A stretch of 64,000 nucleotides of DNA from Gemmatimonadota bacterium (GCA_028875345.1 JAPPEG010000314.1:6505-70504), one strand, 5' to 3'. Positions 1 to 39,834 are shown, numbered from the stretch's first letter. The notes: generated from the letters alone by a model not told the origin. Made by a program: numbers and translations.

Positions 1-1160
1 GGATCCACTTGGCCTTGGGCCAGCCCGAAGAAGCGGTCCAATTCTACGAAATGGCCGTGGCCCTCGAATCCGATCAACCTGAATGGCTCGTCGCTTTGGG
101 CAATGTGCATCTGAAGCTGAGCCGCTACGACGAAGCTCACGCCGCGTTTGCCGCGGCCTTGGCCTTGGACTCGACGTACGCGCCAGCGCGGCGCAACAAA
201 GCGGCGGTGTACAGCAAGCAGGGGCGGTTGGGCGACGCCGCGCACGAATACGAGCGCGCCTTGGCGCTGCGGCCCGAACACCTCCACACCCGCTTCAACC
301 TCGGGCTGGTGTACTCCAGCTTGGGCCGCTATGCAGACGCCAGCGAGGCCCTGCAACAGGTCTTGGTGGCAGCGCCGGAAAACGCGCGTGCGCTCTACGC
401 AATGGGGGAGATCAAACTCCAAGAGGGCGATGACGAGGGGGCCGTCGAGTACTTTGAGCGCACGCTGGCAGCCGACACCACCTATGCGGAGGCACATCTG
501 CAACTGGGGAGGATTCAGATGGGCCAAAACGATCTTGCGGCTGCGACCGAGCGCTTCCGCCAAGCCATTCTAATCGAACCTGGGCTGGCCGAGTCCTTCC
601 GTCTGCTGGGCCAGATTCACCTGCGACAGGGCCGCGAGACAGCCGGAGAAAAATCCTTCGCCGCTTACGAAAAAGTCAAGCAGGTCGAGGGGGATATCCA
701 GCGCTATCGCGAGCGGCTGCGCAGCGATCCAGACGACGCCGACGCCCATTACAGTTTAGGTTTTATGTACAACCGCTTGGGGTTTACCGGCGTGGCTCTG
801 CCGCACTACGCCCAAGCCGTGCGGATCAATCCCGGCCATGTGCAGGCGCTGAACAACATGGGCAACATTTACTTGCGCACTGGACATTTCGATCAAGCGG
901 CAGCGGCATATCAGCAGATCATCGAACAAGACCCCGAGCACGTGGCCGCCTTTGCGGCCCTCGGACAGGTCTATTTGAATCAGCAGCGCACGGATGAGGC
1001 CATCGCCGTGCTCAATCGTGCCCTCGCGCTCGACGAAAACTGGCTCGGTGCTCACCAAGCCTTGGCCGAAGCCTACAAGCGGCTGGGGCAGATTGCCAAA
1101 AGCGAAGAACACAAACGCATGGCCGACGCCTTGCTTAGAAAGCAGAAAGATGATCAATAA
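1..1160 (+). CDS. TPR repeat protein, 5' end outside window
   Basis: The reading frame is open to the window edge. It contains repeated ~34-aa Ala/Leu/Tyr-rich units (e.g. ALALDSTYAPARRNKAAVYSKQGRLGDA, AVRINPGHVQALNNMGNIYLRTGHFDQA) typical of TPR. The stop is at 1158-1160. Confidence 0.8.
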   Translation, partial: IHLALGQPEEAVQFYEMAVALESDQPEWLVALGNVHLKLSRYDEAHAAFAAALALDSTYAPARRNKAAVYSKQGRLGDAAHEYERALALRPEHLHTRFNLGLVYSSLGRYADASEALQQVLVAAPENARALYAMGEIKLQEGDDEGAVEYFERTLAADTTYAEAHLQLGRIQMGQNDLAAATERFRQAILIEPGLAESFRLLGQIHLRQGRETAGEKSFAAYEKVKQVEGDIQRYRERLRSDPDDADAHYSLGFMYNRLGFTGVALPHYAQAVRINPGHVQALNNMGNIYLRTGHFDQAAAAYQQIIEQDPEHVAAFAALGQVYLNQQRTDEAIAVLNRALALDENWLGAHQALAEAYKRLGQIAKSEEHKRMADALLRKQKDDQ

Positions 1161-2892: not shown

Positions 2893-2923
2893 AAAGAAAA
2901 CAGTGCCGCTTTCGTAAATTTTT

Positions 2924-2945
2924 TATACTATATCTATCTAGTATA
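2924..2945. promoter_or_regulatory. AT-rich inverted repeat just upstream of the first discoidin/type-B-CTD gene
   Basis: TATACTA-tatctatc-TAGTATA has 7-bp perfect arms and lies 15 nt upstream of the ATG at 2960. It sits in the only AT-rich gap of the 1-15 kb region and contains a TATACT -10-like hexamer. Confidence 0.35.
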
Positions 2946-2959
2946 TCGGGGGTAAAACC

Positions 2960-5005
2960 ATGAAACGTCTATCGAATTTGTGGCTTTGGTTCCTCGCCGC
3001 AGCATCAGCTACGGGCGCGGCGGCGGACATTTCTTTGTGGCAGATCGGCGGCAGCGGCCTTCGCTGGGCCGATAGCGACTCGGCCCAGGTAATGATTGAC
3101 TTTGCAGGAACGAACAACTCGATTCAGCCGGTGCTGGTCAGCTCGGATACGACGGTCTTTCTCCTGCTCGAAAATTGGTCGCCGAAAAAGGCTCCGGACG
3201 AGCTAGGTTTTGTCGATGGCGAGCGGCCCCGAGCCTGGAAGGGTTGCTGCGGCACCTCATCGACGGTTGACAATGCGCTCAACCTCATCGACGGCAGCGG
3301 CAAGACGTACAATCCGGTGACCAGCAACAGCATTAACAGCGAGTACTACACCATTGATTTGGGCGTGCCGGTGCCGTTGTTCCGCTTTGCTATGAGCACG
3401 CCGGACAAGGGATTTTTCCGCTCGGACGGGACCCCGCTAGAGGAAGACGCCATCCCGGCCTTTGAGGTGTCGATCGCCCCAGACACCAACAACGACGTGC
3501 TGAACACGTCCAACCCCATCGGGGAAGTTATCGTCGAGGCGCGCGAAAATGTCGTCCCCAAGATCGCGGCTGATTTTCCCTTGCAATACGTGCGCTACGT
3601 GCGCTATAAGCGCAAGAATTCGATCCTCGACGAGGCGACGAATCAGTCGTCTGGGCATTCGGGCACGGCGCGCAAGGGGACGGTGGCTGAGTTCTTCCTC
3701 TGGGGAGAGGGAATCCCCAAGCGGGCCACGTACAAGACGACTATTTTCGATCTTGGCACAGTCGTCAACTTCGGGCGGCTGTTCTGGAAGGCCACGCCCA
3801 TGCGCCTAGTCAACGGCGTGGCCGAGGAAGCCCCGGACGCCAACGTGCAGATCGAGGTTGAAGCGCGCACCGGAATCGACTCGAATCCAGATGTCTACTA
3901 CGAGTTCACGGATATGGGAACGCGCGTCGTCGTCGAGCAACAACGCTATCAGGGCGTGCTGAAAAACCAGAGCGCGGCCGTTACTAATGCCGACGGGCTG
4001 GGCGGCACTCTGACCCTTTCCACTCGGCCCAAGCCGGGGCTCCGCGCCGGCATTGAGTACGACCAACAAAACTGGACGTTCTGGTCTTTTCCGACCACTG
4101 AGTCCGACCGACCCCTCAACCTCAACCGGGGGTCGCATCTGCAGATCAAAGTGGTGCTGCACAGCGAGCGATTCGACGAATTCGTGCGCCTCGATTCTCT
4201 GTGGATTGAGACCTCGCCGATCTTGGCCAGCCGCGTCGTAGCTGAAGTGGCCGAACTCGGCCAGCCCAATCCAGCGCGCGGCGTGGCCGAGGTGGCCTTG
4301 GGCGAAAGGACGGACTTCACCTACGACATCAAGGCGGAATTCGCGGCCGGTGAGGTGGGTTTTGACGCCCTGCGGATTAGCACGGGCAGCGCACAAAACG
4401 AGTTCAAATCGCTGGAAATGGATGGGGTTACAACCGACCCGGCTGGAGTCGCGGTTGAGGACGACGGCTTTGTCGTGCAGTTGCCGCAGCGCATAAGCAG
4501 TGCCCACAATCCGGATTTGCGGGTGACCTTTGCCGCCGAAGTCTTCGACTTTGCACGAACTTTTGAGGGCGAGGTTTTCAACACCGACAGTGCCGATCTG
4601 CCGCAGCCAGTGGAGGGTGGGGACGTCAGCAATGCGATCGGTACCAATAGCCTGCGAGTCTTGGCTGCGAGCGCAGCCAATCCGCAATTAGTGCAAGATG
4701 TGCAGTTTTCCAGCGGCGTGATCACCCCCAACGGCGATGGGGTCAACGACGAGTTGGTCATTTCCTACTCGCTCTTCGCGTTGCCGCAATCGGTGCCGGT
4801 ACAGTTGCAAGTGTTTTCGCTGGCCGGTCGTCAGGTGGCGCAAGTCCAGCGCGGCCAGCAGGGGTCCGGGCCTCAGCAATTGCACTGGGATGGTCGCGAC
4901 CAGCGCGGTGAGACGCTCGTTCCGGGCCTTTACCTTTTGGGCATCGGCATCGAAGCCGAAGACAAGAGTGCCCTACAATTGCGGCCCATTAACATCGCTT
5001 ACTGA
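2960..5005 (+). CDS. Secreted discoidin-like protein with T9SS type-B-like C-terminal domain (paralog A, most divergent)
   Basis: Signal peptide MKRLSNLWLWFLAAASATGAAA. Discoidin-like block NLIDGSGKTYNP..YYTIDLGVPVPLFRF..YVRYVRY. The C-terminus is VITPNGDGVNDELVISY..VFSLAGRQV..WDGRDQRGETLVPGLYLL..INIAY. Confidence 0.8.
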   Translation: MKRLSNLWLWFLAAASATGAAADISLWQIGGSGLRWADSDSAQVMIDFAGTNNSIQPVLVSSDTTVFLLLENWSPKKAPDELGFVDGERPRAWKGCCGTSSTVDNALNLIDGSGKTYNPVTSNSINSEYYTIDLGVPVPLFRFAMSTPDKGFFRSDGTPLEEDAIPAFEVSIAPDTNNDVLNTSNPIGEVIVEARENVVPKIAADFPLQYVRYVRYKRKNSILDEATNQSSGHSGTARKGTVAEFFLWGEGIPKRATYKTTIFDLGTVVNFGRLFWKATPMRLVNGVAEEAPDANVQIEVEARTGIDSNPDVYYEFTDMGTRVVVEQQRYQGVLKNQSAAVTNADGLGGTLTLSTRPKPGLRAGIEYDQQNWTFWSFPTTESDRPLNLNRGSHLQIKVVLHSERFDEFVRLDSLWIETSPILASRVVAEVAELGQPNPARGVAEVALGERTDFTYDIKAEFAAGEVGFDALRISTGSAQNEFKSLEMDGVTTDPAGVAVEDDGFVVQLPQRISSAHNPDLRVTFAAEVFDFARTFEGEVFNTDSADLPQPVEGGDVSNAIGTNSLRVLAASAANPQLVQDVQFSSGVITPNGDGVNDELVISYSLFALPQSVPVQLQVFSLAGRQVAQVQRGQQGSGPQQLHWDGRDQRGETLVPGLYLLGIGIEAEDKSALQLRPINIAY

Positions 5006-5016
5006 GGAAATCACTC

Positions 5017-7473
5017 ATGTCCAATCGCGCCATCGCCTTAGTGATGATACTCGCCTGCTACGCGCACGCCGAGTTTCTCACCTTTGACCGCCAAGAGGCT
5101 TGGGAGGCCAACTGGTCGCTCAAGCCGCAGTTAAACATCTTCACTCCAGAGGGGCACTTGGGGCTGCTCAAGTTCCGCAAGGACATCAACGCCGCGCTCG
5201 ATGCCCATCTCTTCGTCCACCCGACCAATGAGCGTGGGGATGTGGCCGGTGGCATTTGGTCTGCGCTGAGTAACCCGAACGACGCTCCTCGAATCATCGA
5301 CGGGGATGACGTCACCTTTTGGCAGCCAGCCGGCAGCGATCCGCTCGACAAGTGGATCGTGCAAATCGACTTGGGCCGCGCGGTACTGGCCAAAGAGATC
5401 CGCATCCACTTTCCCGATGAAGAGGGGGCCAAACCCTTCCGCCAGTTCAGCGTCTTCGCCTCTACAGGTGCCCACGTGGCGGCTTTAGAGGATGTATATC
5501 GCTTCGCGCCGGTCTATCGCACAACTAAACCCAACTTGGATACGTATATCAGCTTTGGGTTCAAGCCGGCCGTGGAGGATACCACCCGTGCTGTGGAACA
5601 ACTAAGCGGTGCCGGAGGCAGCGCGGACTTTACCGCTCCAGAGTTTACTGGTGATGCCAATACCGCCACCACGGGAGGACGCAACAAGGTAGTGGCTACC
5701 GGCCAAGCGGATTCGCGGGTGGCCGTTAACTCTAGGTGGCAGATGATCCAGTTCATCCGCTTCCTCGTCGATGAGCACCAGCTCGACGGCGCGCTTGCCG
5801 AGATCGAGGTCATTGCCGTTGGTGACAACATCAGCCTTGGGGTCGAGGAAAAGGGTGGCACATACGTCAATGGATCGCGGGCGACCGATCCCTTCTTTTG
5901 GCTCGACGGAGATCTTAATACGTACGGGGTCATCGAGGTGCATCAGCAGTTTACCGAGTCGCGCGGCACGGCCCTTGAAGGGGGTTTGTGGTGGCAGGTG
6001 GATCTGGGAGCGACCTACTGGGTGGATGACGCGTTCGTCTATTGGCAAAAGGCTGGTGAGCGTCTGGCCGATTTCCGCTTGGGTACCAATAATGCCGGCA
6101 CAGGGTACACTTTCTTCTCTTCTGACGGCACCAAGACCCTGTCTGGCGACATCGACTTTAATACGTGGATTTTTGAACCGGAGTGGACCAATGCTCGCGA
6201 GCAATACAAGCGGCACTACCGGTATTTGTTCAATCCGCGCAAGGTGCGGCACATCTTCTGGCTGGCCCTGCACGACTTGGGCTGGCGCGCCCATCCCATG
6301 GAGCTACAGATGTTCTCCCCAGGCCACCCGGCCGAAGTCGTGATCCAATCCAATTTTTTAGATCTGAGCGCGCTCGCTGGCGATGGGCAGCCCAAGGTGA
6401 TCAAGGCCATCCACTACGACGCTGACCTGCCGCCCAATACTCAGATCGAACTGCGTTCCCGCTCGGGCAACGAGATGGGCGAGGTGTACACCTTTCACAA
6501 CAAGATCGGCGAGGTAGTAACTGAGGAGAAGTGGAACAGCTCGCCCAAGGTACTGCGGGGCCGAGTGGATACCTCGGTCGTTGTCGGGGAGGCTTGGAGC
6601 GAGTGGAGCAACGTGTACAAGCTGTCGGGCGAGCCTTTTAAGTCGGATTCGCCGCGCAAATTCGTGCAATTAGAGCTGGTTATGAGCACGGAAGATCCCG
6701 AGGTGGCTCCCACGGTACGCGCGGTCGAGTTGGAATTCGTCGATGCGCTGGTCAACGAGGCACGCGGGTCGATTCTGCCCCGCCAAGCTAAGCCCAACGA
6801 GGATACCCGTTTCACCTATATGCTGTGGCCGTCCGTGACCGCGGAGAACACAGGTTTTGATCGCCTGCGCTTGGTCGTGCCCGACTTGGTGCGGGCCGAT
6901 GAAGTCGAGGTGACAGTCGCTGGTCAGATGGTTGCGCCGACGGCTATGGGCATTGCCGCGGATTCGCTGTTGATCGACTTGCCACAGGTGGTTCAAGGGG
7001 ACTCCGTGCAGGTCGCCTTCACCACGCGGTTAGTGCGGAACGCCGCAGTTGTAGATGCCGATCTGGGTCTGAGCGACGCGCCCGGCCTGTGGCAAGACGT
7101 CGAGCCGGCCGAGCGCCGGTCCAACGTAGTGCTCTTGCCCGAACTGGCCGACAGCGACCGCTTGATTGGCGACTTACAGCTTTCGAGCCGCGTACTCACG
7201 CCCAATGGCGATGGAGTCAACGACGCTGTGGAGTTGAGCTTTGTCGTCTTCAAGGCCCAAGATGCGGTGCCCATAGTCGAGGTGAGTGACTTGGTCGGCC
7301 GGCCCGTGGCCCAATTGACGCCGGTCACAGAGGGGCCGACCCGCCGCTTTACGTGGAATGGTCAAGATGCGGGCGGTGCCACTGTGCCCCCGGGCATCTA
7401 TCTCTGGCGCATAGACGTAAACGCAGACTCAGGCGACGCCATTGAGCTGCGCGTCGTCGAGGTGGCGTACTGA
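5017..7473 (+). CDS. Secreted double discoidin-like protein with T9SS type-B-like CTD (paralog B)
   Basis: Signal MSNRAIALVMILACYAHA. Discoidin-like blocks IIDGDDVTFWQP..WIVQIDLGRAVLAKEIRIHFPDEEGAKPFRQFSVF and WWQVDLGATYWVDDAFVYW. The C-terminus is LTPNGDGVNDAVELSF..WNGQDAGGATVPPGIYLWRI..VEVAY. GAGGAA lies upstream of the ATG. Confidence 0.8.
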   Translation: MSNRAIALVMILACYAHAEFLTFDRQEAWEANWSLKPQLNIFTPEGHLGLLKFRKDINAALDAHLFVHPTNERGDVAGGIWSALSNPNDAPRIIDGDDVTFWQPAGSDPLDKWIVQIDLGRAVLAKEIRIHFPDEEGAKPFRQFSVFASTGAHVAALEDVYRFAPVYRTTKPNLDTYISFGFKPAVEDTTRAVEQLSGAGGSADFTAPEFTGDANTATTGGRNKVVATGQADSRVAVNSRWQMIQFIRFLVDEHQLDGALAEIEVIAVGDNISLGVEEKGGTYVNGSRATDPFFWLDGDLNTYGVIEVHQQFTESRGTALEGGLWWQVDLGATYWVDDAFVYWQKAGERLADFRLGTNNAGTGYTFFSSDGTKTLSGDIDFNTWIFEPEWTNAREQYKRHYRYLFNPRKVRHIFWLALHDLGWRAHPMELQMFSPGHPAEVVIQSNFLDLSALAGDGQPKVIKAIHYDADLPPNTQIELRSRSGNEMGEVYTFHNKIGEVVTEEKWNSSPKVLRGRVDTSVVVGEAWSEWSNVYKLSGEPFKSDSPRKFVQLELVMSTEDPEVAPTVRAVELEFVDALVNEARGSILPRQAKPNEDTRFTYMLWPSVTAENTGFDRLRLVVPDLVRADEVEVTVAGQMVAPTAMGIAADSLLIDLPQVVQGDSVQVAFTTRLVRNAAVVDADLGLSDAPGLWQDVEPAERRSNVVLLPELADSDRLIGDLQLSSRVLTPNGDGVNDAVELSFVVFKAQDAVPIVEVSDLVGRPVAQLTPVTEGPTRRFTWNGQDAGGATVPPGIYLWRIDVNADSGDAIELRVVEVAY

Positions 7474-7508
7474 ACGAATCTGCAACGGCCCGATGGAGTT
7501 TGCTTGCC

Positions 7509-8171
7509 ATGTTGAACATTGTGAGAATTTCCTCGCTAGTTGTATTCACCATCCTCACAGCTTGCGCCCAAGGATCGGGCATGACCACCAAGCGCCAGTT
7601 GAACTTATCTGAGCGTGGGGTATCAGCGATTCCTCCCAGCATTACCGAGGGACAGGTCGGGCCTTTGCTGATACGGGGCCGCAGTGCATATCAGGCCGAA
7701 GTTGAAAGGACGATAGAGCGGGCCCAATCCGTGCCTATGGAAAATTCTGGTCTATTCGCCTTTTTCGGCACTGTTAATAAAAGCTATCTCCGATCGCAGG
7801 TGACAGACCTCCATCTGGAGATCATCCCCCGTATCATCAGGGAATTGCAAAGTCAAGGAGATGCCTTTGCGAACAAAAATGTATCGCCTGAGTTCGCGGT
7901 CTCATTTGTGGTAACAGACCTCCATTTCTGGCAAAAAATAACCCCGTCCCAAGTAATCACTATGAACCATCGGGCGGGCCACGGCCACATGCACTTGGAG
8001 CTAGAAATAAGGCGCTTGGCAACCAACGAGGTGGAAGCGACGCATGTTCTGATCGGGCAGGTGGAAAAACCCGAGGCAGCCGGCGTGTACACTGTGGATG
8101 ACCTACTCGATGAGGTCGCACAGCAGACGGGTGAGACTGTCGTAGAATTCATGAGGTCGTTGGAACTGTAA
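7509..8171 (+). CDS. Small lipoprotein of unknown function, low-GC gene inside the paralog array
   Basis: Lipobox LTAC in MLNIVRISSLVVFTILTACAQGSG. There is an alternative TTG start at 7500. Local 60-nt stretches are about 42-45% GC against about 60% in the flanks, counted by hand on two lines. Confidence 0.6.
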   Translation: MLNIVRISSLVVFTILTACAQGSGMTTKRQLNLSERGVSAIPPSITEGQVGPLLIRGRSAYQAEVERTIERAQSVPMENSGLFAFFGTVNKSYLRSQVTDLHLEIIPRIIRELQSQGDAFANKNVSPEFAVSFVVTDLHFWQKITPSQVITMNHRAGHGHMHLELEIRRLATNEVEATHVLIGQVEKPEAAGVYTVDDLLDEVAQQTGETVVEFMRSLEL

Positions 8172-8228
8172 AACCTTCTGGTGATGGGAAGTTTTACTTC
8201 AATATCAACGGGGCTTGCAGTAGCATGC

Positions 8229-10577
8229 ATGATCGAGAGACGCGGGATTTGCTGCGTGCTCACGGCCCTGTTCATCTGCGGTGTTAGCCATGCCGAAGAA
8301 ATCCGCTTTGACTCCCCGGCCGAGTGGGCGACTTGGGAGGTTCCGGTTGATATCGTCCAGTTTGCAGACGACGGCCCGCTGGAACTGAGGAAATTCCGCA
8401 AGGAGATCAACGCCACCCTCGATGCCCATCTTTTCACCCAGCCTACCCAGACTCGTGGCAAGGTCCAAGGGGGAATCTGGCAGGCCGGCTCCAATCCGAC
8501 GGCGGCCCGACGCATCATGGACGGCGATCTGGAGACGGTGTGGCGGCCTAGCCAAGCCGACGATTTGGTCGATTGGGTGGTGACCATTGACTTGGGGCGG
8601 CCCGTGCTAGCCGAGCGCATTCGCTTGGTGTTTCCCGACCGCGCAGGAGCGCGTCCTTTGCGGCAATTCAGCGTTTTCACGGCCAACGGTGCGCGCATCC
8701 AATCCACGGATGACGTCTTCAAATTCAACCAAGCCTTTCAGACAACCCAGCCCAACCAAGAGCAGGTCGTCGATATTGATCTAGTCGGCGAGCGCGACGT
8801 AACGCGGGTCATCGACGAAAACCTCGGGCTGGACCCAACCGCGCTAAATACCTTCCGCATGGTGCGCTTTGTGCGCGTGCGCGCCGACGAAAAAAGTGCG
8901 GATGCAGCTTTGGCCGAAGTGGAGGTGGTCGCCGCAGGCGACAACATAAGTCTCGGGGTTTTGGCGCGCGGCGGCAGCTTCGACAATGGACTTTTGGCGC
9001 GCGAGCCGCAGAATATGTTCGACGGCATCACCGATACGTACGGCAATATATTCACCGTCCAGAGCAAGGGCGGCTGGCGCGAGAGTGGGGTGTGGTGGTC
9101 GGTGGATTTAGGGGCGCTGTTCTGGCTCGACGAGGCATTCATCTACTGGCAGGATCGCGGCGAGGGCCTGTCGAGCTTCCTGTTCGAGGGATTGCAGGCT
9201 GGTTCTGGATACCAAATTCTCTTTTCCGATGGGCGGCGAACCATTGCCGGCGATATCGACTACACGCCGCTGATCTTCGAGCCAAGGCCAGTCGGCGCAG
9301 AGTGGAACTTGCGCCACCATCGCTACGCGTTTGCGCCGCGCAAAATTCGCTACTTATTCTGGCATTCGCTGACCGACACAGGCTGGTTTTCTCACCCCAT
9401 GGAGTTGATGCTTTTCTCGCCGGGCTACCCCGCGCAAGTGGTGTTGCTCTCGGACTTTATCAACCTCGGCCAACTCGCTGGCGATGGCCGCGCCAAGGCC
9501 ATCAAGCGCTTGCGCTGGGAGGCAACCACGCCGGATCAGACGCGGTTGCAGGTGCGCTCGCGGTCGGGCAATACTCTGCAAGAGTTCTATACTTTCTACG
9601 ACAAAAAGGGTGAGGAAGTCACCGAGACGCGCTACGGGAGCCTGCCCAAAGTCATCCGTGGCCCCATTGACACCACGGTCGTCGTAGGAGCCGATTGGGG
9701 TCCATGGAGCAATTTCTACCAGTTTTCGGGCGAGGCGTTTAAGTCGGAGACGCCGCGCCGTTTTATCCAGTTGGAACTGATTCTCTCCACCGAGGCTCCG
9801 GCGGTCGCGCCGGTGTTGCACGCGCTGGCGCTGGATTTTGAGGATGCGCTGGTCTCCCAGGCAGCCGGACAGATTGCGCCGCGCCACGCCGTTCCTAACG
9901 AGGCGATGCAGTTTACGTATGTGCTGCGGACGAGCACTACCGAAGGCGATACGGGCTTTGACCGGCTGCGCTTTTCCACGCCGAGCGCAGTGGATGCCGC
10001 AAATGTGCGGCTGTGGATCAGCGGCGTGGAACGCGAGGCGAGCGCGGTGCGCGTGGTGGGGGATTCGCTATTATTCGTCGATTTGCCGGAGGTGGTGCGG
10101 ACGGACTCTGTCGCCGTGGAGTTTACCACGAAGGTATTGCACAATGCCACGGTTTTTGCCGCTGACTTAGGTCAGGAAGCTCGTCCAGATCTGTGGCAGT
10201 CGGTCGAGGCGGCTGAGCGGCAAGCGAACTTGGTATTTTTGCCGGACCTACCCGGCAGTGAGCGGCTGATTGGCGATTTGCAGATTGCGCCGTTGGTATT
10301 TTCGCCCAACGGCGATGGGATCAACGACCACGTGCAGATACGCTTTGCGCTGTTCAAGGCGGTGGATGTGTCTCCAAGCGTGCGCATTTTCGACTTGGCG
10401 GGTCGAGAAGTGATGGCTCTTGCTTCGTCGGGAGGGGATGTGTTGCAGTCGTTTAGTTGGGGCGGATTGGATGCGTCGGGTGAGCGGGTGGTGCCTGGGG
10501 TTTACGTGTGCCGCATAGACGCGGGAGCCGACGCTGGACAGGGAGAAGTAATGCGCACCCTAGCCGTAGCCTATTGA
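8229..10577 (+). CDS. Secreted double discoidin-like protein with T9SS type-B-like CTD (paralog C)
   Basis: I chose the start at 8229 (MIERRGICCVLTALFICGVSHAEE) by alignment with the paralog D signal peptide; the track ORF begins at 8181. It has the same discoidin blocks. The C-terminus is FSPNGDGINDHVQIRF..WGGLDASGERVVPGVYVCRI..LAVAY. Confidence 0.8.
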   Translation: MIERRGICCVLTALFICGVSHAEEIRFDSPAEWATWEVPVDIVQFADDGPLELRKFRKEINATLDAHLFTQPTQTRGKVQGGIWQAGSNPTAARRIMDGDLETVWRPSQADDLVDWVVTIDLGRPVLAERIRLVFPDRAGARPLRQFSVFTANGARIQSTDDVFKFNQAFQTTQPNQEQVVDIDLVGERDVTRVIDENLGLDPTALNTFRMVRFVRVRADEKSADAALAEVEVVAAGDNISLGVLARGGSFDNGLLAREPQNMFDGITDTYGNIFTVQSKGGWRESGVWWSVDLGALFWLDEAFIYWQDRGEGLSSFLFEGLQAGSGYQILFSDGRRTIAGDIDYTPLIFEPRPVGAEWNLRHHRYAFAPRKIRYLFWHSLTDTGWFSHPMELMLFSPGYPAQVVLLSDFINLGQLAGDGRAKAIKRLRWEATTPDQTRLQVRSRSGNTLQEFYTFYDKKGEEVTETRYGSLPKVIRGPIDTTVVVGADWGPWSNFYQFSGEAFKSETPRRFIQLELILSTEAPAVAPVLHALALDFEDALVSQAAGQIAPRHAVPNEAMQFTYVLRTSTTEGDTGFDRLRFSTPSAVDAANVRLWISGVEREASAVRVVGDSLLFVDLPEVVRTDSVAVEFTTKVLHNATVFAADLGQEARPDLWQSVEAAERQANLVFLPDLPGSERLIGDLQIAPLVFSPNGDGINDHVQIRFALFKAVDVSPSVRIFDLAGREVMALASSGGDVLQSFSWGGLDASGERVVPGVYVCRIDAGADAGQGEVMRTLAVAY

Positions 10578-10579
10578 GG
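9381..10579 (+). repeat. Direct repeat copy 1 (3' half of paralog C)
   Basis: Collinear and indel-free with 11767-12965. Spot-checked stretches (e.g. 9467-9570 against 11853-11956) differ at only a few positions per 100 nt. Confidence 0.85.
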
Positions 10580-10593
10580 TAGGTTAGAGCGGT

Positions 10594-12963
10594 ATGATGC
10601 AGAGAAAACACAGGGTTTGCCATTTGCTCTTGGGGCTGTTCATCTGCGGTGTGAGCCGGGCCGAGGAGGTCCGCTTCGACACCCCTTCCGAGTGGGCGAC
10701 TTGGGAATTTCCGGTGGACATAGTCCAATTTGCAGACGACGGTTCGCTGAAGTTGAAGAAATTCCGCAAGCAGATCAACGCGACCCTCGACGCCCACCTC
10801 TTCACCCATCCTTCTAAGAAGCGCGGCGAGGTCGAAGGCGGAATATGGCGCGCCGGCAGCAATGAGGCGGACGCACCCAAGCTCATGGATGGCGATCCGG
10901 CGACCTATTGGCAGCCCGATGTAGCAGACCAGCTCGTTGATTGGTCGGTCGATATCGACTTGGGTCGGCCGGTGCTGGCGCGGGAGATCAAGCTGATATT
11001 CCCCGACCAAGAGGGCGCTCGGCCTTTGCGGCAATTTAGCGTCTTTATCACGCAGGGTGCCCGGATCCAAGCGCAAGACGACGTGTTCCGCTATCGCAAG
11101 ATCTTCCAGACGACCAAGCCCAATACCGAGACTACCATTGCGATTCCGCTGCTAGGTAGTGCGCTGGATACTACGCGGGTGCTCGACGCGGATAGAAGCG
11201 TTGATTTGAATGCCGAGCAGGACTTCCAAATGGTGCGGCTGATCCGCATCGTCGCCGATGAAAAGAGTCGTGATGCAGCCTTAGCCGAAATAGAGATCCT
11301 TTCCCAAGGGGACAACGTTAGCTTGGGGACCTTGGAACGAGGTGGGCGCTTTGAACACGGCCTGCTGGCGCGTGAGCCGCAGAACATGTTCGACGGCAAT
11401 ATGGACACCTTCGGCAATATTCTCACCTCGGGGGGGACCAAGGGCGGCTGGCGCGAGGGCGGGCTGTGGTGGCAGGTGGATTTGGGGGCGCTGTTCTGGA
11501 TCGATGAGCTATTTATATATTTTAAAACTCGGGGTGAGGGCACGTCGAGTTTCTTGTTTGAACGCCTGCATCACGGGCGCGGCTACAACATCTTGTTCTC
11601 GGACGGACGGCTCACTACCGGCGGGGATTTGGACTTGACCTTCCTGCTGCGCGAGGACATGGCCATTGACGCGGCGTTAGCATCCGCGCGGCTAGTCCGC
11701 CACATTCGCTATCTTTTTGAACCGCGCAAGATGCGCTACATCTTCTGGCACGGCCACGAGGACCAAGGTTGGTTTTCGCATCCAATGGAATTTATGCTCT
11801 TTTCGCCGGGCTATCCGGCGCAGGTGATGTTGCGCTCGGACTTTATCGATCTCGGCCAACTCGCTGGCGATGGCCGCGCCAAAGCCATCAAGCGCTTGCG
11901 CTGGGAGGCGACCACGCCGGATCAGACGCAGTTGCAGGTGCGCTCGCGGTCGGGCAACGTCCTGCAAGAGCTATACACGTTCTACGACAAAAAGGGCGAG
12001 GAAGTCACCGAGACGCGCTACAACAGTTTGCCCAAAGTCATCCGCGGCCCCATTGACACCATGGTCGTCGTGGGAGCCGATTGGGGTGCGTGGAGCAACT
12101 TCTACCAGTTTTCCGGCGAGGCGTTTAAGTCGGAGACACCGCGCCGTTTTATCCAATTGGAGCTGATTCTCTCCACCGAGGATCCGGCTGTCGCGCCGGT
12201 GTTGCACGCGCTGGCGCTGGATTTTGAGGACGCGCTGGTGGCGCAAGCGGCTGGGCAAGTTATGCCGCGTCATGCTGCACCTAACGAGGCGACACAGTTC
12301 ACATACACGTTGTGGACGAACGCGGCCGAAGGCGACTCGGGCTTTGACCGGCTGCGCTTTTCCTCGCCGAGCGCGGTGGATGTAGCGGATGTGCGATTGT
12401 CGATCGGCGGCGTGGAACGCGAGGCGAGTGGGGTGCACGTGGAGGGGGATTCGCTGCTGTTCGTAGATTTACCGGAGACGCTGGGGACGGATTCCGTCGC
12501 TGTGGAGTTCACCACTAAAGTGCTGCGCAACGCCACGGTCTTTGCTGCGGATTTGGGGCAAGAAGCTCGTCCCGATCTGTGGCAGTCAGTGGAAGCGACC
12601 GAGCGGCAAGCGAACTTGGTGTTTCTGCCGGACTTACCCGGCAGTGAGCGGCTGATCGGCGATTTGCAGGTTGTACCGCCGGTGTTTTCGCCCAATGGCG
12701 ATGGGATCAACGACCACGTGCAGATACGCTTTGCGCTGTTCAAGGCGGTGGATGCGTCTCCGAGCGTGCGCATTTTCGACTTAGCGGGGAGGGAAGTGGC
12801 AGCGCTGATGTTGTCTGGTGGAGATGTGTTGCGGTCGTTTAGTTGGAATGGATTGGATGGGTCGGGTGAGCGGGTGGCACCGGGCGTATATGTGTGCCGG
12901 ATTGACGCGGGTGCCGACGCCGGTCAGGGAGAAGTAATACGCACCATAGCCGTAGCCTATTGA
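10594..12963 (+). CDS. Secreted double discoidin-like protein with T9SS type-B-like CTD (paralog D)
   Basis: Signal MMQRKHRVCHLLLGLFICGVSRAEE. The C-terminal ~400 aa are about 90% identical to paralog C, while the N-terminal half is much more diverged. Confidence 0.8.
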   Translation: MMQRKHRVCHLLLGLFICGVSRAEEVRFDTPSEWATWEFPVDIVQFADDGSLKLKKFRKQINATLDAHLFTHPSKKRGEVEGGIWRAGSNEADAPKLMDGDPATYWQPDVADQLVDWSVDIDLGRPVLAREIKLIFPDQEGARPLRQFSVFITQGARIQAQDDVFRYRKIFQTTKPNTETTIAIPLLGSALDTTRVLDADRSVDLNAEQDFQMVRLIRIVADEKSRDAALAEIEILSQGDNVSLGTLERGGRFEHGLLAREPQNMFDGNMDTFGNILTSGGTKGGWREGGLWWQVDLGALFWIDELFIYFKTRGEGTSSFLFERLHHGRGYNILFSDGRLTTGGDLDLTFLLREDMAIDAALASARLVRHIRYLFEPRKMRYIFWHGHEDQGWFSHPMEFMLFSPGYPAQVMLRSDFIDLGQLAGDGRAKAIKRLRWEATTPDQTQLQVRSRSGNVLQELYTFYDKKGEEVTETRYNSLPKVIRGPIDTMVVVGADWGAWSNFYQFSGEAFKSETPRRFIQLELILSTEDPAVAPVLHALALDFEDALVAQAAGQVMPRHAAPNEATQFTYTLWTNAAEGDSGFDRLRFSSPSAVDVADVRLSIGGVEREASGVHVEGDSLLFVDLPETLGTDSVAVEFTTKVLRNATVFAADLGQEARPDLWQSVEATERQANLVFLPDLPGSERLIGDLQVVPPVFSPNGDGINDHVQIRFALFKAVDASPSVRIFDLAGREVAALMLSGGDVLRSFSWNGLDGSGERVAPGVYVCRIDAGADAGQGEVIRTIAVAY

Positions 12964-12965
12964 GG
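11767..12965 (+). repeat. Direct repeat copy 2 (3' half of paralog D)
   Basis: Same as copy 1, at an offset of exactly 2386 nt. Identity extends 2 nt past both stop codons (TATTGAGG). Confidence 0.85.
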
Positions 12966-12971
12966 AATGCC

Positions 12972-14855
12972 ATGACTGTCGCTCCAGCCGTGTACCGCGA
13001 TCAGAAGTGGATCATCTCGCCCTTTGGCGACCTGTTCTTTTTTATAGGTACGCCACTTTTGTGCTTGGTGACCATGCTGCCATTGCGAGCCGTGTTCGAC
13101 TCGCAGACTATCGCCTTCTACGCGCTGGCACTGTTTGCCACCGGCCATCACTTGCCGGGCTTTATGCGCGCATACGGCGACCCAGATCTATTCAGCACCT
13201 TCAAGGAGAAGTTCCTCGTCGCGCCTATCGTCGTGCTCATCGTGACGGCGCTGGCGCAATTCAATACCCTGCACGGGCTTTTCCTAATGGTGCTAGTGTG
13301 GGAGATCTGGCACCTGTTTATGCAGCACTACGGCATCATGCGGATCTACGATGCTAAAAACAAGATCTTCTCCAAGCTCGACGCCCGGCTCGACTGGCTG
13401 TTGACCTTGTGTGCCTTTGCAACGGTGGTCATCTATAGCCCCGAATACTTCCATCGCATCCTCGACCACAACCAGCGGGTCGGCGTGCCCTTCCTGTCGG
13501 CCGAATTGACGTTCCTGCTCAAAAAAGTGCTGTTCTATGTTACTATGGCCGTGCTGGCGGCGTACTTGGCCAACATCGTCCGGCGGGCGATTACCGGTCA
13601 GAAGATAAGCCTGCCAAAAATCGCGGTGATGGCGACCACGGTGTTTATCATTTACTACGGCTGGATACACATCAACGACCTAGTCATCGGCTACGCGGCC
13701 TTTGCCGTTTTTCACGATATCCAGTACTTCGCCATCGTCTGGGTCTACAACAACAACCTCGTCAAAAGGCAGGAGCGCACTACCAAGCTCCTGCGCACCT
13801 TCTTTACTACGCGCACCTTGCCGATACTGGTCGCGTACGTGCTGGTGTGCTTCGCCTACGGCAGCATCAACATGATGGAGGGCTTCCTCAAGTCCGAGCA
13901 GGCGATCAAAATGGTCGAGATCTTCGTCATCACCTCGACGCTTTTGCACTACTATTTCGATGGGTTTATCTGGAAAATCCGCGACCGCAAAAACCAAGCC
14001 AATCTGGGGATCAACGCCGAGGAAGGGTCCAACCGCATTGGATTGCAGACATTGCCGAGCGGCTTGGTCTCGTACTTCCGCGAAACGGGCCGACAGTTGG
14101 CCTATTTCGCAGTGCCGGTGGTGGCACTCTCGCTTTTCCAATTTTACTGGACGGCCGACGAGGCCGAGGCGCGGGAAAAGATGGTCGAATTGTTCCCGGA
14201 CTTGGCTGGTGCCCACAACAACCTCGGCGTCTTCTATGCGCGGCAGGGTGACTGGGAAAGGGCTGCTGGCGAGTATCAGCGGGCGCTAGAGCTAGATGCG
14301 GGGGCCTATGAGGCACACAAAAACCTCGGTTTACTCTACGCGCGACGGGGGCGACGGGGCGATTGGGAAAAGGCGCATATGCACTACCAGCAGGCGATTG
14401 ACCACAAGCCGCGCTACGTCGAAGCGCTCAACGCGCAGGGATTGATCTTTTTGCAGCGGGGCGAGTTCACGAGGGCAGAAGAACGCTTCCGCGAGGCCCT
14501 TGATGAGTTCGACTACGCCCCAGCGTACAACAACCTCGGTACGGCCTATTTGCATATGGAGAACTTGCCGGCGGCGATCGACGCCTACCAAAAAGCCGTC
14601 GCGCTCGACCGGGCCGACGCCTCGCACCACTTCAACTTGGGGTTGGCCTTGCAGAAGGCCGGAGAGAACGAGCAGGCGGTCGCCGCGTTTGCCTCGGCGC
14701 TCTCTTTGGAGCCTCGCCACGTCAAAGCTTATTTGAGCATGGCGCTTTCTTACCAGCGATTGGGCCACATTGCCGAGGCGCGGCAGGCGTTGCAGCAGTT
14801 ATTGGCGGTGGACCCGAACCATGCCACGGCGGCGCGGCTATTGGCCCGGTTGTAA
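12972..14855 (+). CDS. Polytopic membrane protein with conserved His motifs fused to a C-terminal TPR domain, function unknown
   Basis: The ATG at 12972 lies 5 nt after GAGGAA, which overlaps the stop of paralog D. About 9-10 hydrophobic segments carry the motifs GHHLPGFMRAYGD, WEIWHLFMQHYG, FHDIQYFAIVW and HYYFDGFIWKIR. These are followed by TPR units (AHNNLGVFYARQGDWERA, AYNNLGTAYLHMENLPAA, etc.). Confidence 0.7.
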   Translation: MTVAPAVYRDQKWIISPFGDLFFFIGTPLLCLVTMLPLRAVFDSQTIAFYALALFATGHHLPGFMRAYGDPDLFSTFKEKFLVAPIVVLIVTALAQFNTLHGLFLMVLVWEIWHLFMQHYGIMRIYDAKNKIFSKLDARLDWLLTLCAFATVVIYSPEYFHRILDHNQRVGVPFLSAELTFLLKKVLFYVTMAVLAAYLANIVRRAITGQKISLPKIAVMATTVFIIYYGWIHINDLVIGYAAFAVFHDIQYFAIVWVYNNNLVKRQERTTKLLRTFFTTRTLPILVAYVLVCFAYGSINMMEGFLKSEQAIKMVEIFVITSTLLHYYFDGFIWKIRDRKNQANLGINAEEGSNRIGLQTLPSGLVSYFRETGRQLAYFAVPVVALSLFQFYWTADEAEAREKMVELFPDLAGAHNNLGVFYARQGDWERAAGEYQRALELDAGAYEAHKNLGLLYARRGRRGDWEKAHMHYQQAIDHKPRYVEALNAQGLIFLQRGEFTRAEERFREALDEFDYAPAYNNLGTAYLHMENLPAAIDAYQKAVALDRADASHHFNLGLALQKAGENEQAVAAFASALSLEPRHVKAYLSMALSYQRLGHIAEARQALQQLLAVDPNHATAARLLARL

Positions 14856-14868
14856 GCGGTGGTCCTGC

Positions 14869-17043
14869 CTAATGACGATGCGCTTGGTGGCCTTCGGTCG
14901 CTAGCGCGAGGGGATAGACGTCCAAACGTTCTAGGGCCGTAGCATCTTCGCGAATCCGGTACACCCCATTGACCGGCACGTTTGTAAAGGTCTGCACCGT
15001 GCCCGACGGCCAGTGCAAAGTCAGCTCGTCGAGTACTTCAGCTTCCCCCAATCCGATCTCCTGTTGTAAGGTCGAAGCCCCAAAACTCGCGCCCGTGCCG
15101 ACGAGGATGTGAATCGTCCGCGTCCCAGCGTGGGCTTGAATCCGCGTCCCAATCCCGGCTCGATTCGACTTGGTCCCCTCTAGTTTGAGGGTGATCCAAT
15201 GGTTGCCGTGCCCGGGGTTTTCAAAGAGCACGTTGGTGTACACGTCTCCCGAATAGGCTCCACCGACCACCGCATAGATGTCCTGATCGCCGTCGTTGTC
15301 GATATCGCCGAAGGCTACGCCGTGCCCTTTTTGCAGGTGTCCGAAGCCACCGGAGGTAGTTACATCTTCAAAGCGCTGACCCGAGGCGTTGCGGAACATG
15401 CGGTTGGGCATCAGCGAACGGTAGTCGGGGTCGCCGGTGCCAGCGTAGAAATCGAGCCAGCCGTCGTTGTCGAGGTCGCCGAAGTTGCAGCCCATCGTAT
15501 AGAGGACCTTGTCACTGTGGGTCTGTCGGGCCATGTCGGCGAAGGTGCCGTCGCCTTGGTTGCGATAGAGGCGAGGCGGCTCGCCTTTGTGTGGTAGGCC
15601 CATGTAGTCGGCGGCGACATCGCCAGCGTCGGCCTTGTAGCCGGAGACGAACAGGTCCAGCCAGCCGTCGTTGTCGTAGTCCCAAAACCACACCGGAAAG
15701 CTGAACGTCGGCTGACCCACGCCAGCGCGGGCGGTTATATCGGAGAAACGCCAGCGGCCATTGGCGTCTGGCCCATCGTTGTGGAAAAGTAGATTGGGCT
15801 GTCCGAGGCGGGAGATGTAGAGGTCGGGCCGGCGGTCGTTGTCGATGTCTCCCCAAGCCACCCCTTTGACGAAGCCATCGACGTCTAAGCCGACTTCTGC
15901 TGCCACATCAATAAAGGTTCCGTCGCCTTGATTGCGGAACAATTCGCAGGGATGTTGCTCTTGGGCGGAGGATTCGTTGCCCACGAATAGGTCGAGCCAA
16001 CCGTCGTTGTCAAAGTCGGCCCAAGCCGCGGTCTGCGTTGGGTGCAACGTGAGCAGCCCAGCCGCCTCGGTTACATCGGCGAAGGTACCGTCGCCTTGGT
16101 TGCGCAATAGCGAGTTGGGATGGAGGCCGTCGGCACCAAACCAGCCACCGCGCAAGACCAGTACATCGGCAAAGCCGTCGTTGTCAAAGTCCGTCTGCAC
16201 GGCGTTGAGACCGCCGACTAGGCCGGTCAAACCAGCGGCGGCGGTGCGCTCGGCGAAGGTGCCGTCGCCTTGGTTGCGGAAGTAGCGCAGTGGATCGTCG
16301 AGACCCCAAGAAGTGGCGATGATGTCGAGGAAGCCGTCGTTGTCAAAGTCTTCCATAATGCCGCCTCCGGCCAAGCCGAGGACATTCAATCCTAGGGCAT
16401 CAGCTCGGTCGGGGAAGTGGCCAATATCGGCGTCAGCGACGAAGACCTCTGGGGGAATGAGATGGGCGGCTGGCACTTGGTGTGGATACTCACCCACGGT
16501 CATGTAGGCGATGTTGAGCAACCAGCGCGAGGTCAGGTCGTAGGGCGTTTTTTCCAAGATTGTGCGGTAGTAAGCGATGGCCGCCCGCGATCCCTCCTGC
16601 GCCTTATGGACTCCCTCGGCTGCGATGGGCAGCAGGCAAGAGGCGAGGTTGTGATCGTCGATGCAGTTTTGCTGCTCGCCGAGCCGCAAATAGGCGAGCG
16701 CGATCATCTCTTCAAGGCTCGGTCGGGTGCGGAAGCGGTGGACGGCAGCTTGCTCGCGCACCTGCTCGAACAGGGTGGCTGCCTCGGCGGATGCACCGGA
16801 GCGCAACAACTCTTTGGCCAGTTCGACCTGTCGGCTGAGCTGTTGCACGGGATCGTCTGGCTCGGACTGGCGGCGCAGCCAGTCAACGCGGCGCTGGCTC
16901 AAATAGATGTTGTCCTCGGCGTTGGCCTGAGCAGCGAGGGCGTCGAGTTGCTCAGCCATGCGCTGAGTGCCGGGAGCCTGATAGGGATCGGCAGTGCAAC
17001 TCGCTAGCGCGAGGGCCAAGAAGGCGATGGCGCAGGGGTTCAT
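14869..17043 (-). CDS. CRTAC1-family lipoprotein (N-terminal TPR-like region, FG-GAP/VCBS repeats, ASPIC/UnbV C-terminus)
   Basis: Lipobox LALASC. Seven repeats of the type FDNDGFLDI, FDNDGFADV, FDNDGWLDLFVGN, DIDNDRRPDLY, DYDNDGWLDLFVSG, DLDNDGWLDFY, DIDNDGDQDIY. The C-terminus GHGNHWITLKLEGTKSNRAGIGTRI..LHWPSGTVQ is typical of UnbV_ASPIC. Confidence 0.8.
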   Translation of the reverse strand: MNPCAIAFLALALASCTADPYQAPGTQRMAEQLDALAAQANAEDNIYLSQRRVDWLRRQSEPDDPVQQLSRQVELAKELLRSGASAEAATLFEQVREQAAVHRFRTRPSLEEMIALAYLRLGEQQNCIDDHNLASCLLPIAAEGVHKAQEGSRAAIAYYRTILEKTPYDLTSRWLLNIAYMTVGEYPHQVPAAHLIPPEVFVADADIGHFPDRADALGLNVLGLAGGGIMEDFDNDGFLDIIATSWGLDDPLRYFRNQGDGTFAERTAAAGLTGLVGGLNAVQTDFDNDGFADVLVLRGGWFGADGLHPNSLLRNQGDGTFADVTEAAGLLTLHPTQTAAWADFDNDGWLDLFVGNESSAQEQHPCELFRNQGDGTFIDVAAEVGLDVDGFVKGVAWGDIDNDRRPDLYISRLGQPNLLFHNDGPDANGRWRFSDITARAGVGQPTFSFPVWFWDYDNDGWLDLFVSGYKADAGDVAADYMGLPHKGEPPRLYRNQGDGTFADMARQTHSDKVLYTMGCNFGDLDNDGWLDFYAGTGDPDYRSLMPNRMFRNASGQRFEDVTTSGGFGHLQKGHGVAFGDIDNDGDQDIYAVVGGAYSGDVYTNVLFENPGHGNHWITLKLEGTKSNRAGIGTRIQAHAGTRTIHILVGTGASFGASTLQQEIGLGEAEVLDELTLHWPSGTVQTFTNVPVNGVYRIREDATALERLDVYPLALATEGHQAHRH

Positions 17044-34447: not shown

Positions 34448-38702
<4,255 letters not shown>

Positions 38703-38711
38703 GGCCGCCTT

Positions 38712-39821: not shown

Positions 39822-39834
39822 TAAAGGAGCTGAT

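Follow-up and report, generated by a model that had tools for sequence, protein, structure and literature searches.

A putative Tyr-terminated relative of the type-B sorting domain and two orphan protein families: a possible lineage-specific variant of surface-protein sorting in Latescibacterota

Results

Gene content and extent of the cluster

The DNA considered here, a stretch of 64,000 nucleotides deposited under the name Gemmatimonadota bacterium (GCA_028875345.1 JAPPEG010000314.1:6505-70504) and hereafter called the window, carries near its left edge seven co-directional genes on the + strand (1150-14855) that encode a peptidyl-prolyl isomerase (PPIase) and, in this order, the products A, B, C, D, E and F (Table 1). 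Four of these, A, B, D and E, are large exported proteins that close in a common Tyr-terminated C-terminal domain (CTD); C is a lipoprotein, and F is a polytopic membrane protein with tetratricopeptide repeats (TPR). We examine whether this cluster may represent a variant of the type-B-like sorting of surface proteins.

At 97-99% identity, the F region matches loci in chromosomes of 'Candidatus Latescibacterota' (e.g. OZ220721.1) and in the metagenome-assembled genome (MAG) SB0661_bin_36, which is labelled Gemmatimonadetes, and by sequence identity the cluster is assigned to an uncultured, sponge-associated Latescibacterota bacterium. Several public MAGs with the cluster (VXML01000019.1, here L008, and others; L numbers denote the loci compared) are labelled Gemmatimonadetes/Gemmatimonadota, Planctomycetota or Dehalococcoidia. 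Since their loci are near-identical to those of the Latescibacterota chromosomes, these bins or contigs are likely mislabelled.

The genes are tightly packed, with spacers of 11 nt between A and B, 26 nt between B and C, 9-57 nt between C and D, 16 nt between D and E and 8 nt between E and F, and a GAGGA Shine-Dalgarno sequence 5 nt upstream of the ATG of F overlaps the TGA stop codon of E. A sequence-only reading of this DNA, made by a model, had already noted that overlap, together with the TPR gene and the PPIase upstream, both of which are present, and had described the genes A to F as a six-gene operon. The common direction and the tight spacing stand; the count of six does not, as C proves to be a strain-variable indel and the cluster runs well beyond the window. 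The gap upstream of A contains no consensus sigma-70 match on the + strand (2893-2959), and consensus scans for promoters and terminators gave no enrichment over shuffled sequences.

The DNA to the left of the window edge is revealed by contig L243, which is 99.8-99.9% identical to the window and carries, in order, an X-type gene (see below) cut by the contig end, a TPR protein of 423 aa, two ASPIC/FG-GAP proteins of 559 and 545 aa, the soluble TPR protein that the window edge truncates, here in its full length of 462 aa (6276-7664), and then PPIase-A-B-D-E-F, with D called as a gene of 782 aa. Further upstream, L201, from a close relative, has a CBM9-like protein, a 269-aa protein, an A-type protein whose CTD reaches 35.1 bits with CHU_C, and an X-type gene that is complete at 897 aa. 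Comparison with L201 and L243 extends the cluster ~12 kb past the window's left edge, and the region in the window is the right-hand part of a conserved, co-directional cluster of envelope-protein genes of ~27 kb. An identical 580-aa product is already on record for the PPIase.

Gene C lies on a 767-bp segment (7476-8242) that is replaced by 31 bp in L243 and has a GC content of 52%, against ~60% in its flanks; C was found in only 4 of ~35 related loci and has no family match in Pfam or NCBIfam. It is thus an accessory strain-level gain or loss inside the operon and not a core component: the lipoprotein that the sequence-only reading had counted as an operon member is there, with its LTAC lipobox, and is absent from L243 and most related genomes. 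We also considered C as a PorP-like or assembly partner of the exported proteins and rejected it because it is a strain-level indel.

The exported proteins

A, B, D and E are beta-rich proteins of two related families, and in each a Sec-type signal peptide can be read from the sequence, as a hydrophobic N-terminus with an AxA-type cleavage site. B and D are 47% identical over their full length and D and E 75%, and the D/E pair is the product of a recent tandem duplication. A, on the other hand, aligns with B over its last ~280 aa only (30% identity, E 2e-26). B, D and E contain discoidin/F5-8 type C (NedA-like galactose-binding) domains above the gathering thresholds of Pfam: they score 50.3 bits (in two stretches), 32.6 and 30.7 bits on F5_F8_type_C_2 (PF22633; cut-off 27.8), with B scoring a further 35.1 bits on PF00754; in A there is no significant F5/8-C match in Pfam, and at most a degenerate copy. 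The earlier description of four paralogs with two discoidin blocks each therefore stands for B, D and E as full-length paralogs above the Pfam cut-offs and has to be given up for A, which shares only its C-terminal portion. The B-type proteins carry two of these domains, which are of carbohydrate-binding type and stand here in a new multi-domain context. In searches of Pfam, NCBIfam and PDB sequences, none of A, B, D and E showed a glycoside hydrolase or lyase domain, and phmmer and profile searches of A and E against PDB sequences returned nothing beyond one weak FlgD Ig match.

An identical 25-nt GC-rich hairpin, then TGGATTTTGA, occurs in D (9807-9831) and E (12193-12217). Its reading as a terminator was rejected, since the hairpin is duplicated coding sequence of the two paralogs.

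The Tyr-terminated C-terminal domain

One immunoglobulin (Ig)-like domain of ~95 aa closes all four large proteins, which end in PNGDG[VI]ND ... W.G.D..G....PG.Y ... [VI]AY, so that the C-terminal pattern first seen by eye is borne out on every one of them. On the Pfam model CHU_C (gathering cut-off 27) the scores are 29.4 bits for A, 28.9 for E, 27.0 for D and 25.1 for B, and on FlgD_ig they range from 16 to 28 bits, with E-values of 1e-5 to 1e-7 for these matches. The FlgD equivalog models are matched by the Ig-like part alone, at 12-22 bits against cut-offs of 230-383.

A scan of species-representative genomes with a profile built from eight Tyr-terminated CTDs recovered numerous further copies from Latescibacterota chromosomes; after these, the nearest relatives among the matches listed were proteins of 600-3400 aa from Bacteroidota that have type-B-like tails, 31-41% identical to the CTD, these tails being recognised by similarity and by their ...L[IVL]R ends, not by a hidden Markov model (HMM). 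The CTD aligns end to end with 10 such tails and shares with them PNGDG.ND, WDG and G.Y, whereas the Latescibacterota domain has a first loop longer by 6-8 residues, 'LAGR' where the Bacteroidota have 'RWG', and the end [VL][AV]Y in place of [LIV][LIV][RK]. The terminal Tyr was found in 113 of 117 B-type homologs and 116 of the 120 best CTD hits; the profile search for homologs behind this count gave mostly gene fragments and was used for the terminal residue, the diversity of passengers being taken from the genome scan.

From these alignments, we regard the CTD as a distinct, divergent and Tyr-terminated relative of the sorting domain of type-B cargo of the Bacteroidota type IX secretion system (T9SS), and place it outside the curated type-B family TIGR04131. 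The sequence-only reading had called it a T9SS type-B domain of the CHU_C/TIGR04131 kind, which is upheld in its first half as far as homology goes, by CHU_C scores of 25-29 bits about a cut-off of 27 and the end-to-end alignment, and falls short in its second, with 15-17 bits on TIGR04131 against a cut-off of 35.

Two neighbours to the right of the cluster, both glucose/sorbosone dehydrogenase (GSDH)-like, pass the curated type-A model TIGR04183 (17074-19995, - strand, 31.5 bits; 20014-21999, - strand, 33.5 bits; cut-off 23), and their tails are canonical for type A (NYPNPFN ... LLK). The lineage therefore uses CTD-type tails. The two are paralogous secreted beta-propeller proteins, and the longer (17074-19995) also scores 231 bits on the model for the SO2930-family diheme cytochrome c, below the cut-off of 313.

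Synteny and a second module

In every Latescibacterota locus with upstream DNA, an A gene and one to three B-type genes lie directly 5' of F, at F identities of 57-99%. The same chromosomes carry a second, paralogous module with the order PPIase, A-like, X, X, F2, a 308-aa CBM9-like-related protein, two or three A-like and one or two B-like genes, which we saw in L091 (OZ220721.1:6111231-6132937), L090, L007 and ~40 further loci. F2 is 33-37% identical to F and keeps 23 of 23 checked conserved residues; the PPIase of the second module is 25-28% identical to that of the window. The combination of a PPIase with A-type, B-type and F-type proteins has thus outlasted duplication, deep divergence and re-ordering, which argues for functional coupling. 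The membrane/TPR gene hence stands beside such proteins in every related genome examined and again in the second module, as its proposed role had called for, and the PPIase, put forward earlier as a helper gene, is a conserved member of both modules. An HTTM/VKGC (vitamin-K-carboxylase-like) gene that lies between two B-like genes in L007 was rejected as a module member, as it is not conserved in L091. Locus L118, a contig of a Latescibacterota MAG, has two F-type genes ~3 kb apart (10106-11602 and 14785-16656), one of them F2-like and the other 54% identical to the window's F.

The 40-odd full-length Tyr-CTD proteins found elsewhere in Latescibacterota all have passengers of the A or B type, and none has an unrelated one. 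Among the matches listed, A/B-type genes occupy several separate loci per chromosome, and a rough count of loci gives at least a dozen Tyr-CTD discoidin-type proteins per genome.

ASPIC-UnbV/FG-GAP proteins also recur near both modules, with three copies around the window cluster and an orientation that varies between genomes (L243 2966-6279, L201 14319-17653 and some F2 loci, in addition to the - strand copy in Table 1; + strand in L001). They may be further components or substrates.

X-type proteins

The X-type proteins have ~900-1000 aa, a signal peptide, strongly conserved Asp/Asn-rich motifs (VDDNDDQDR.PDW; FPGYDEN.DFISDFNQNDN; IDMNNNGWIDRFENDDLPDYPYK) and a conserved amphipathic C-terminal strand. 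Five of them gave no Pfam match at E<=10, and there was none in NCBIfam or PDB sequences. Of 45 sampled Tyr-CTD genes, ~20 have an X-type gene close by, at most 160 nt downstream or else 16 nt upstream.

In Bacteroidota, genes for type-B cargo are linked to genes for cognate PorP/SprF-like shuttle or anchor proteins, by which the cargo is anchored, the cargo gene often being followed directly by one partner gene (PMC9143113; PMC12618676). The pairing of X with its cargo genes would parallel this linkage, without detectable homology of X to PorP/SprF, and X is in our view the best candidate for the outer-membrane partner in the PorP/SprF role, its location being guessed from sequence. The earlier remark that no partner is present is accordingly correct for the window, where PorP/SprF is absent, and too narrow beyond it, with X adjoining ~45% of the sampled paralogs and one such pair lying just upstream in related strains.

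The orphan membrane/TPR protein F

The first 400 residues of F have no Pfam or NCBIfam family, in keeping with the sequence-only reading, which knew of none for the membrane partner. They define a large family: a word-indexed search gave 255 homologs and an exhaustive one 473 cluster representatives at E<=1e-30, and GTDB species-representative genomes hold 502 loci, spread over Latescibacterota, Planctomycetota, Bryobacterales and other Acidobacteriota, and Verrucomicrobiota (Udaeobacter, Chthoniobacterales). Almost every member carries 1-10 TPRs on the C-terminal side of the membrane domain. Seven diverse membrane domains, searched against Pfam at E<=10, gave only two unrelated noise matches (E 0.15-0.56), and phmmer and profile searches of F against PDB sequences matched the TPR part only. 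AlphaFold2 models the full-length protein at a pLDDT of 91.6, and residues 1-400 at a pLDDT of 88.5 and a pTM of 0.88; a Foldseek search of the PDB with the membrane domain alone had a best E of 0.2 and TM<=0.25, and with the full-length model it returned TPR proteins only.

Eleven membrane helices are predicted within residues ~1-400, with 15 Lys and Arg residues inside and 4 outside, which suggests a cytoplasmic N-terminus and a periplasmic TPR array. The residues H63, (H64), R70, W114, W117, H118, Q122, Y124, R128, Y130, K133 and D145, and further H252, Q255, Y256, H330, D334 and W338, are invariant. The pairs H118/Q122, H252/Q255 and H330/D334, spaced i/i+3-4, suggest a metal, catalytic or ion-coupling site. 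No Cys is invariant, and the invariant Cys/Ser nucleophile of sortase-like enzymes is missing from F. With the eukaryotic TMTC / bacterial PMT-like GT-C and O-antigen-ligase-like + TPR enzymes F shares a multi-helix membrane domain and an extracytoplasmic TPR array, presumably for the selection of protein substrates; it differs from such enzymes in that its conserved residues are predicted near the cytoplasmic face and not in a periplasmic loop, and it has no Pfam match to PMT_2, DUF1736 or Wzy_C at E<=10.

The neighbours of F homologs outside Latescibacterota are clade-specific (an arginase-family gene and an iron permease in Udaeobacter; FGE and sulfatase in one planctomycete; amidohydrolases and a GDSL lipase in another genome), and they were dropped as a functional clue for want of a common theme. 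In the planctomycete (L005/L043, Planctomycetota JAXMBY010000004.1, 9151-12852), a TPR-poor F homolog of 495 aa lies between FGE-sulfatase-domain and sulfatase genes, with start/stop overlaps, an arrangement that may hint that F-family proteins serve other exported enzymes.

Table 1. Features of the cluster in the window (positions counted from its first nucleotide) and X-type genes in related loci
Feature	Position	Strand	Remarks
TPR protein gene, 3' part	1..1160	+	TPR Pfam matches; cut by the window's left edge
PPIase, SurA/PrsA-like parvulin, 580 aa	1150..2892	+	Rotamase 75.6 bits; signal or lipoprotein-like N-terminus
AT-rich 67-nt gap 5' of A	2893..2959	+	possible promoter, from reading of the sequence
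A, A-type exported protein, 681 aa	2960..5005	+	Tyr-terminated CTD; CHU_C 29.4, FlgD_ig 28.0 bits
B, B-type exported protein, 818 aa	5017..7473	+	two discoidin/F5-8-C domains, beta-rich middle, Tyr-terminated CTD
C, lipoprotein gene, 223 aa	7500..8171	+	lipobox LTAC; on 767-bp insertion 7476..8242
D, B-type paralog, 782 aa	8229..10577	+	likely ATG 8229; open reading frame from 8181 = 798 aa
E, B-type paralog, 789 aa	10594..12963	+	75% identical to D
F, membrane/TPR protein, 627 aa	12972..14855	+	open reading frame start 12960 = 631 aa; ATG 12972
FG-GAP/ASPIC-UnbV (CRTAC1-like) secreted protein	14869..17043	-	Pfam; recurrent module neighbour
X-type gene	L091 4164-6986		
X-type gene	L091 6985-9966		
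X-type gene	L201 10303-12996		
X-type gene	L243 3-1622		

Discussion

To our knowledge, T9SS-type sorting is understood almost exclusively from work on Bacteroidota, and Latescibacterota is a sister phylum in the FCB group without cultured members; our literature searches on T9SS in Latescibacteria/Latescibacterota found no papers. We suggest that the cluster described here encodes a variant, particular to this lineage, of the type-B-like sorting of surface proteins, in which the partner families are new, a reading to which we give about an even chance. In this proposal, the A/B proteins would be exported by Sec and kept export-competent in the periplasm by the parvulin PPIase and the TPR proteins; they would then cross, or pass onto, the outer membrane via the Tyr-terminated CTD by a T9SS-like route, to be displayed as glycan-binding surface proteins. 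F would be an inner-membrane factor onto whose periplasmic TPR array the cargo probably docks, perhaps by its invariant C-terminal ...AY, and X would be the cognate outer-membrane partner for A/B cargo. The His/Asp/Gln/Arg/Lys cluster of F near the cytoplasmic face may be a metal, catalytic or ion-coupling site, and F would then be an enzyme, or an assembly factor coupled to energy or ions, and not a passive scaffold.

Several observations weigh against this proposal. None of the four CTDs reaches the curated cut-offs, neither that of TIGR04131 for type B (35 bits; B 15.4, D 15.4, E 17.1, no match for A; second-module paralogs score 21-22 bits) nor that of TIGR04183 for type A (23 bits; A 13.2, D 13.6, E 14.8, no match for B). 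PorP_SprF found no match in the window's genes or in Pfam searches of L001-L007 and L243, and the outer-membrane location of X is itself a guess. Most invariant residues of F lie toward the cytoplasmic ends of the helices, an awkward position in a protein that is to act on cargo in the periplasm, and an F gene is present at only two of the many A/B loci per genome. F homologs outside Latescibacterota have no A-, B- or X-type gene within 10 kb, and the core activity of F is therefore general and not specific to A/B cargo; its use with A/B proteins is, by the evidence of gene neighbourhoods, probably a Latescibacterota speciality, and the claim of a 'dedicated' membrane factor does not survive the wide occurrence of the family in Planctomycetota, Verrucomicrobiota and Acidobacteriota without such neighbours. 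Lastly, housekeeping genes (two MiaB-like, UvrD, YceG) are equally syntenic within the phylum, so that synteny at the locus of F is, taken alone, weak evidence.

Some of these points lend weight to another explanation, that of an ordinary T9SS array in which A, B, D and E are simply divergent type-B adhesins or binding proteins that a standard T9SS secretes, and the PPIase and F are housekeeping envelope proteins kept in place by phylogenetic inertia, F having a general role apart from the cargo, for example in lipid or glycan metabolism. The homology of the CTD to type-B tails, the type-A CTD proteins next door, the breadth of the F family without A/B neighbours, the housekeeping synteny and the many A/B loci without an F gene would all be expected of such an array. 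The cluster shares with the type-B systems (SprB-SprF of Flavobacterium johnsoniae, PG1035-PorP of Porphyromonas gingivalis) the Sec signal peptide, the C-terminal Ig-like domain of ~90-100 aa, the [ST]PNGDG[VI]ND, WDG and G.Y motifs with end-to-end alignment, and a multigene cargo family. Yet inertia does not explain why the four-gene combination is kept in two modules at 25-37% identity and in different order, nor is it suggested by a ribosome-binding site of F that overlaps the stop codon of E. In the annotated loci PorP/SprF is absent, the CTDs stay below the curated type-B threshold, and the cluster departs from the type-B systems by its terminal Tyr in place of Arg/Lys, by 'LAGR' in place of 'RWG' and the longer first loop, by an unrelated partner X of ~950 aa, by the additional conserved PPIase and F-type partners, and by its Latescibacterota host. 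Type-A tails (TIGR04183, Por_Secre_tail), present on neighbouring proteins in the same genome, have the same Ig-like framework, W.G....G......G.Y, from which A, B, D and E differ by PNGDG.ND in place of NYPNPFN and by an AY end in place of LLK. We consider the ordinary array unlikely.

Alternatively, the cluster could encode a self-contained new sorting system independent of the classical T9SS, with the Tyr-CTD as tag, F as the membrane enzyme that would recognise this tag by its TPR array and process, modify or anchor it, and X as dedicated outer-membrane exporter or anchor, following the logic of exosortase and PEP-CTERM. The near-invariant C-terminal [VL]AY on a multigene family, the polytopic protein with invariant polar residues, whose gene adjoins those of the targets and, as in PEP-CTERM loci, is accompanied by PPIase and TPR genes, the X-type genes that abut cargo genes, and the lack of an assigned family or known fold for F and X are what such a system would look like; the EpsD-type PPIase and PrsT-type TPR models, too, gave weak matches, below cut-off. 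The resemblance to PEP-CTERM loci, however, stops at the common C-terminal signature of paralogous exported proteins and at these accompanying genes: the cluster has no PEP motif, no transmembrane anchor or basic tail, no match to an exosortase model and, in F, no Cys that is invariant. As with T9SS signals, the CTD is a folded Ig domain and not a short peptide with a transmembrane anchor, the conserved residues of F are predicted on the cytoplasmic side, away from the exported tag, F offers no invariant Cys/Ser nucleophile, and its homologs in other phyla have no such targets nearby, all of which makes this explanation quite doubtful. Still less credit can be given to the possibility that the Ig domain is merely structural, with no part in sorting, and that A, B, D and E are periplasmic or outer-membrane-associated proteins for binding or processing glycans in a polysaccharide-use apparatus, even though Ig domains of the FlgD_ig/CHU_C type are found as purely structural modules too, the scores here are borderline, the discoidin and CBM9-like domains of the cluster suggest carbohydrate binding, and Latescibacteria have been described as saccharolytic (PMC4454575). 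It would be an improbable outcome for a domain that always stands at the extreme C-terminus, with an invariant terminal residue, and aligns over its full length with bona fide secretion tails, and A, B, D and E have no detected glycoside hydrolase or lyase domain.

A bolder reading can also be stated, although we hold it to be rather improbable. The Tyr-CTD, X and F would here constitute a previously undescribed Latescibacterota pathway of sorting and anchoring, in which X replaces PorP/SprF and F founds a class of His-rich membrane enzymes or coupling factors, with other exported substrates in Planctomycetota, Verrucomicrobiota and Acidobacteriota. As far as comparison of sequences goes, no component matches a characterised locus, as the sequence-only reading had supposed for the cluster at large: the CTD would be a new variant of a known signal, and F and X orphan families. 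We note that the cluster shows how Latescibacterota may have rewired the T9SS-type sorting seen in Bacteroidota. With the tag PNGDG.ND ... [VL]AY-COOH as a simple rule, the predicted surface proteome of Latescibacterota, whether associated with sponges or free-living, can be listed, and F and X are two sizeable families with confident sequence conservation and without a family assignment.

Another locus in the window

Elsewhere in the window, positions 36909-42098 hold a gene for a Wzi-like capsule-assembly outer-membrane protein, followed by GT2, radical-SAM/SPASM and GT2 genes, which may be a small exopolysaccharide or modified-glycan locus.

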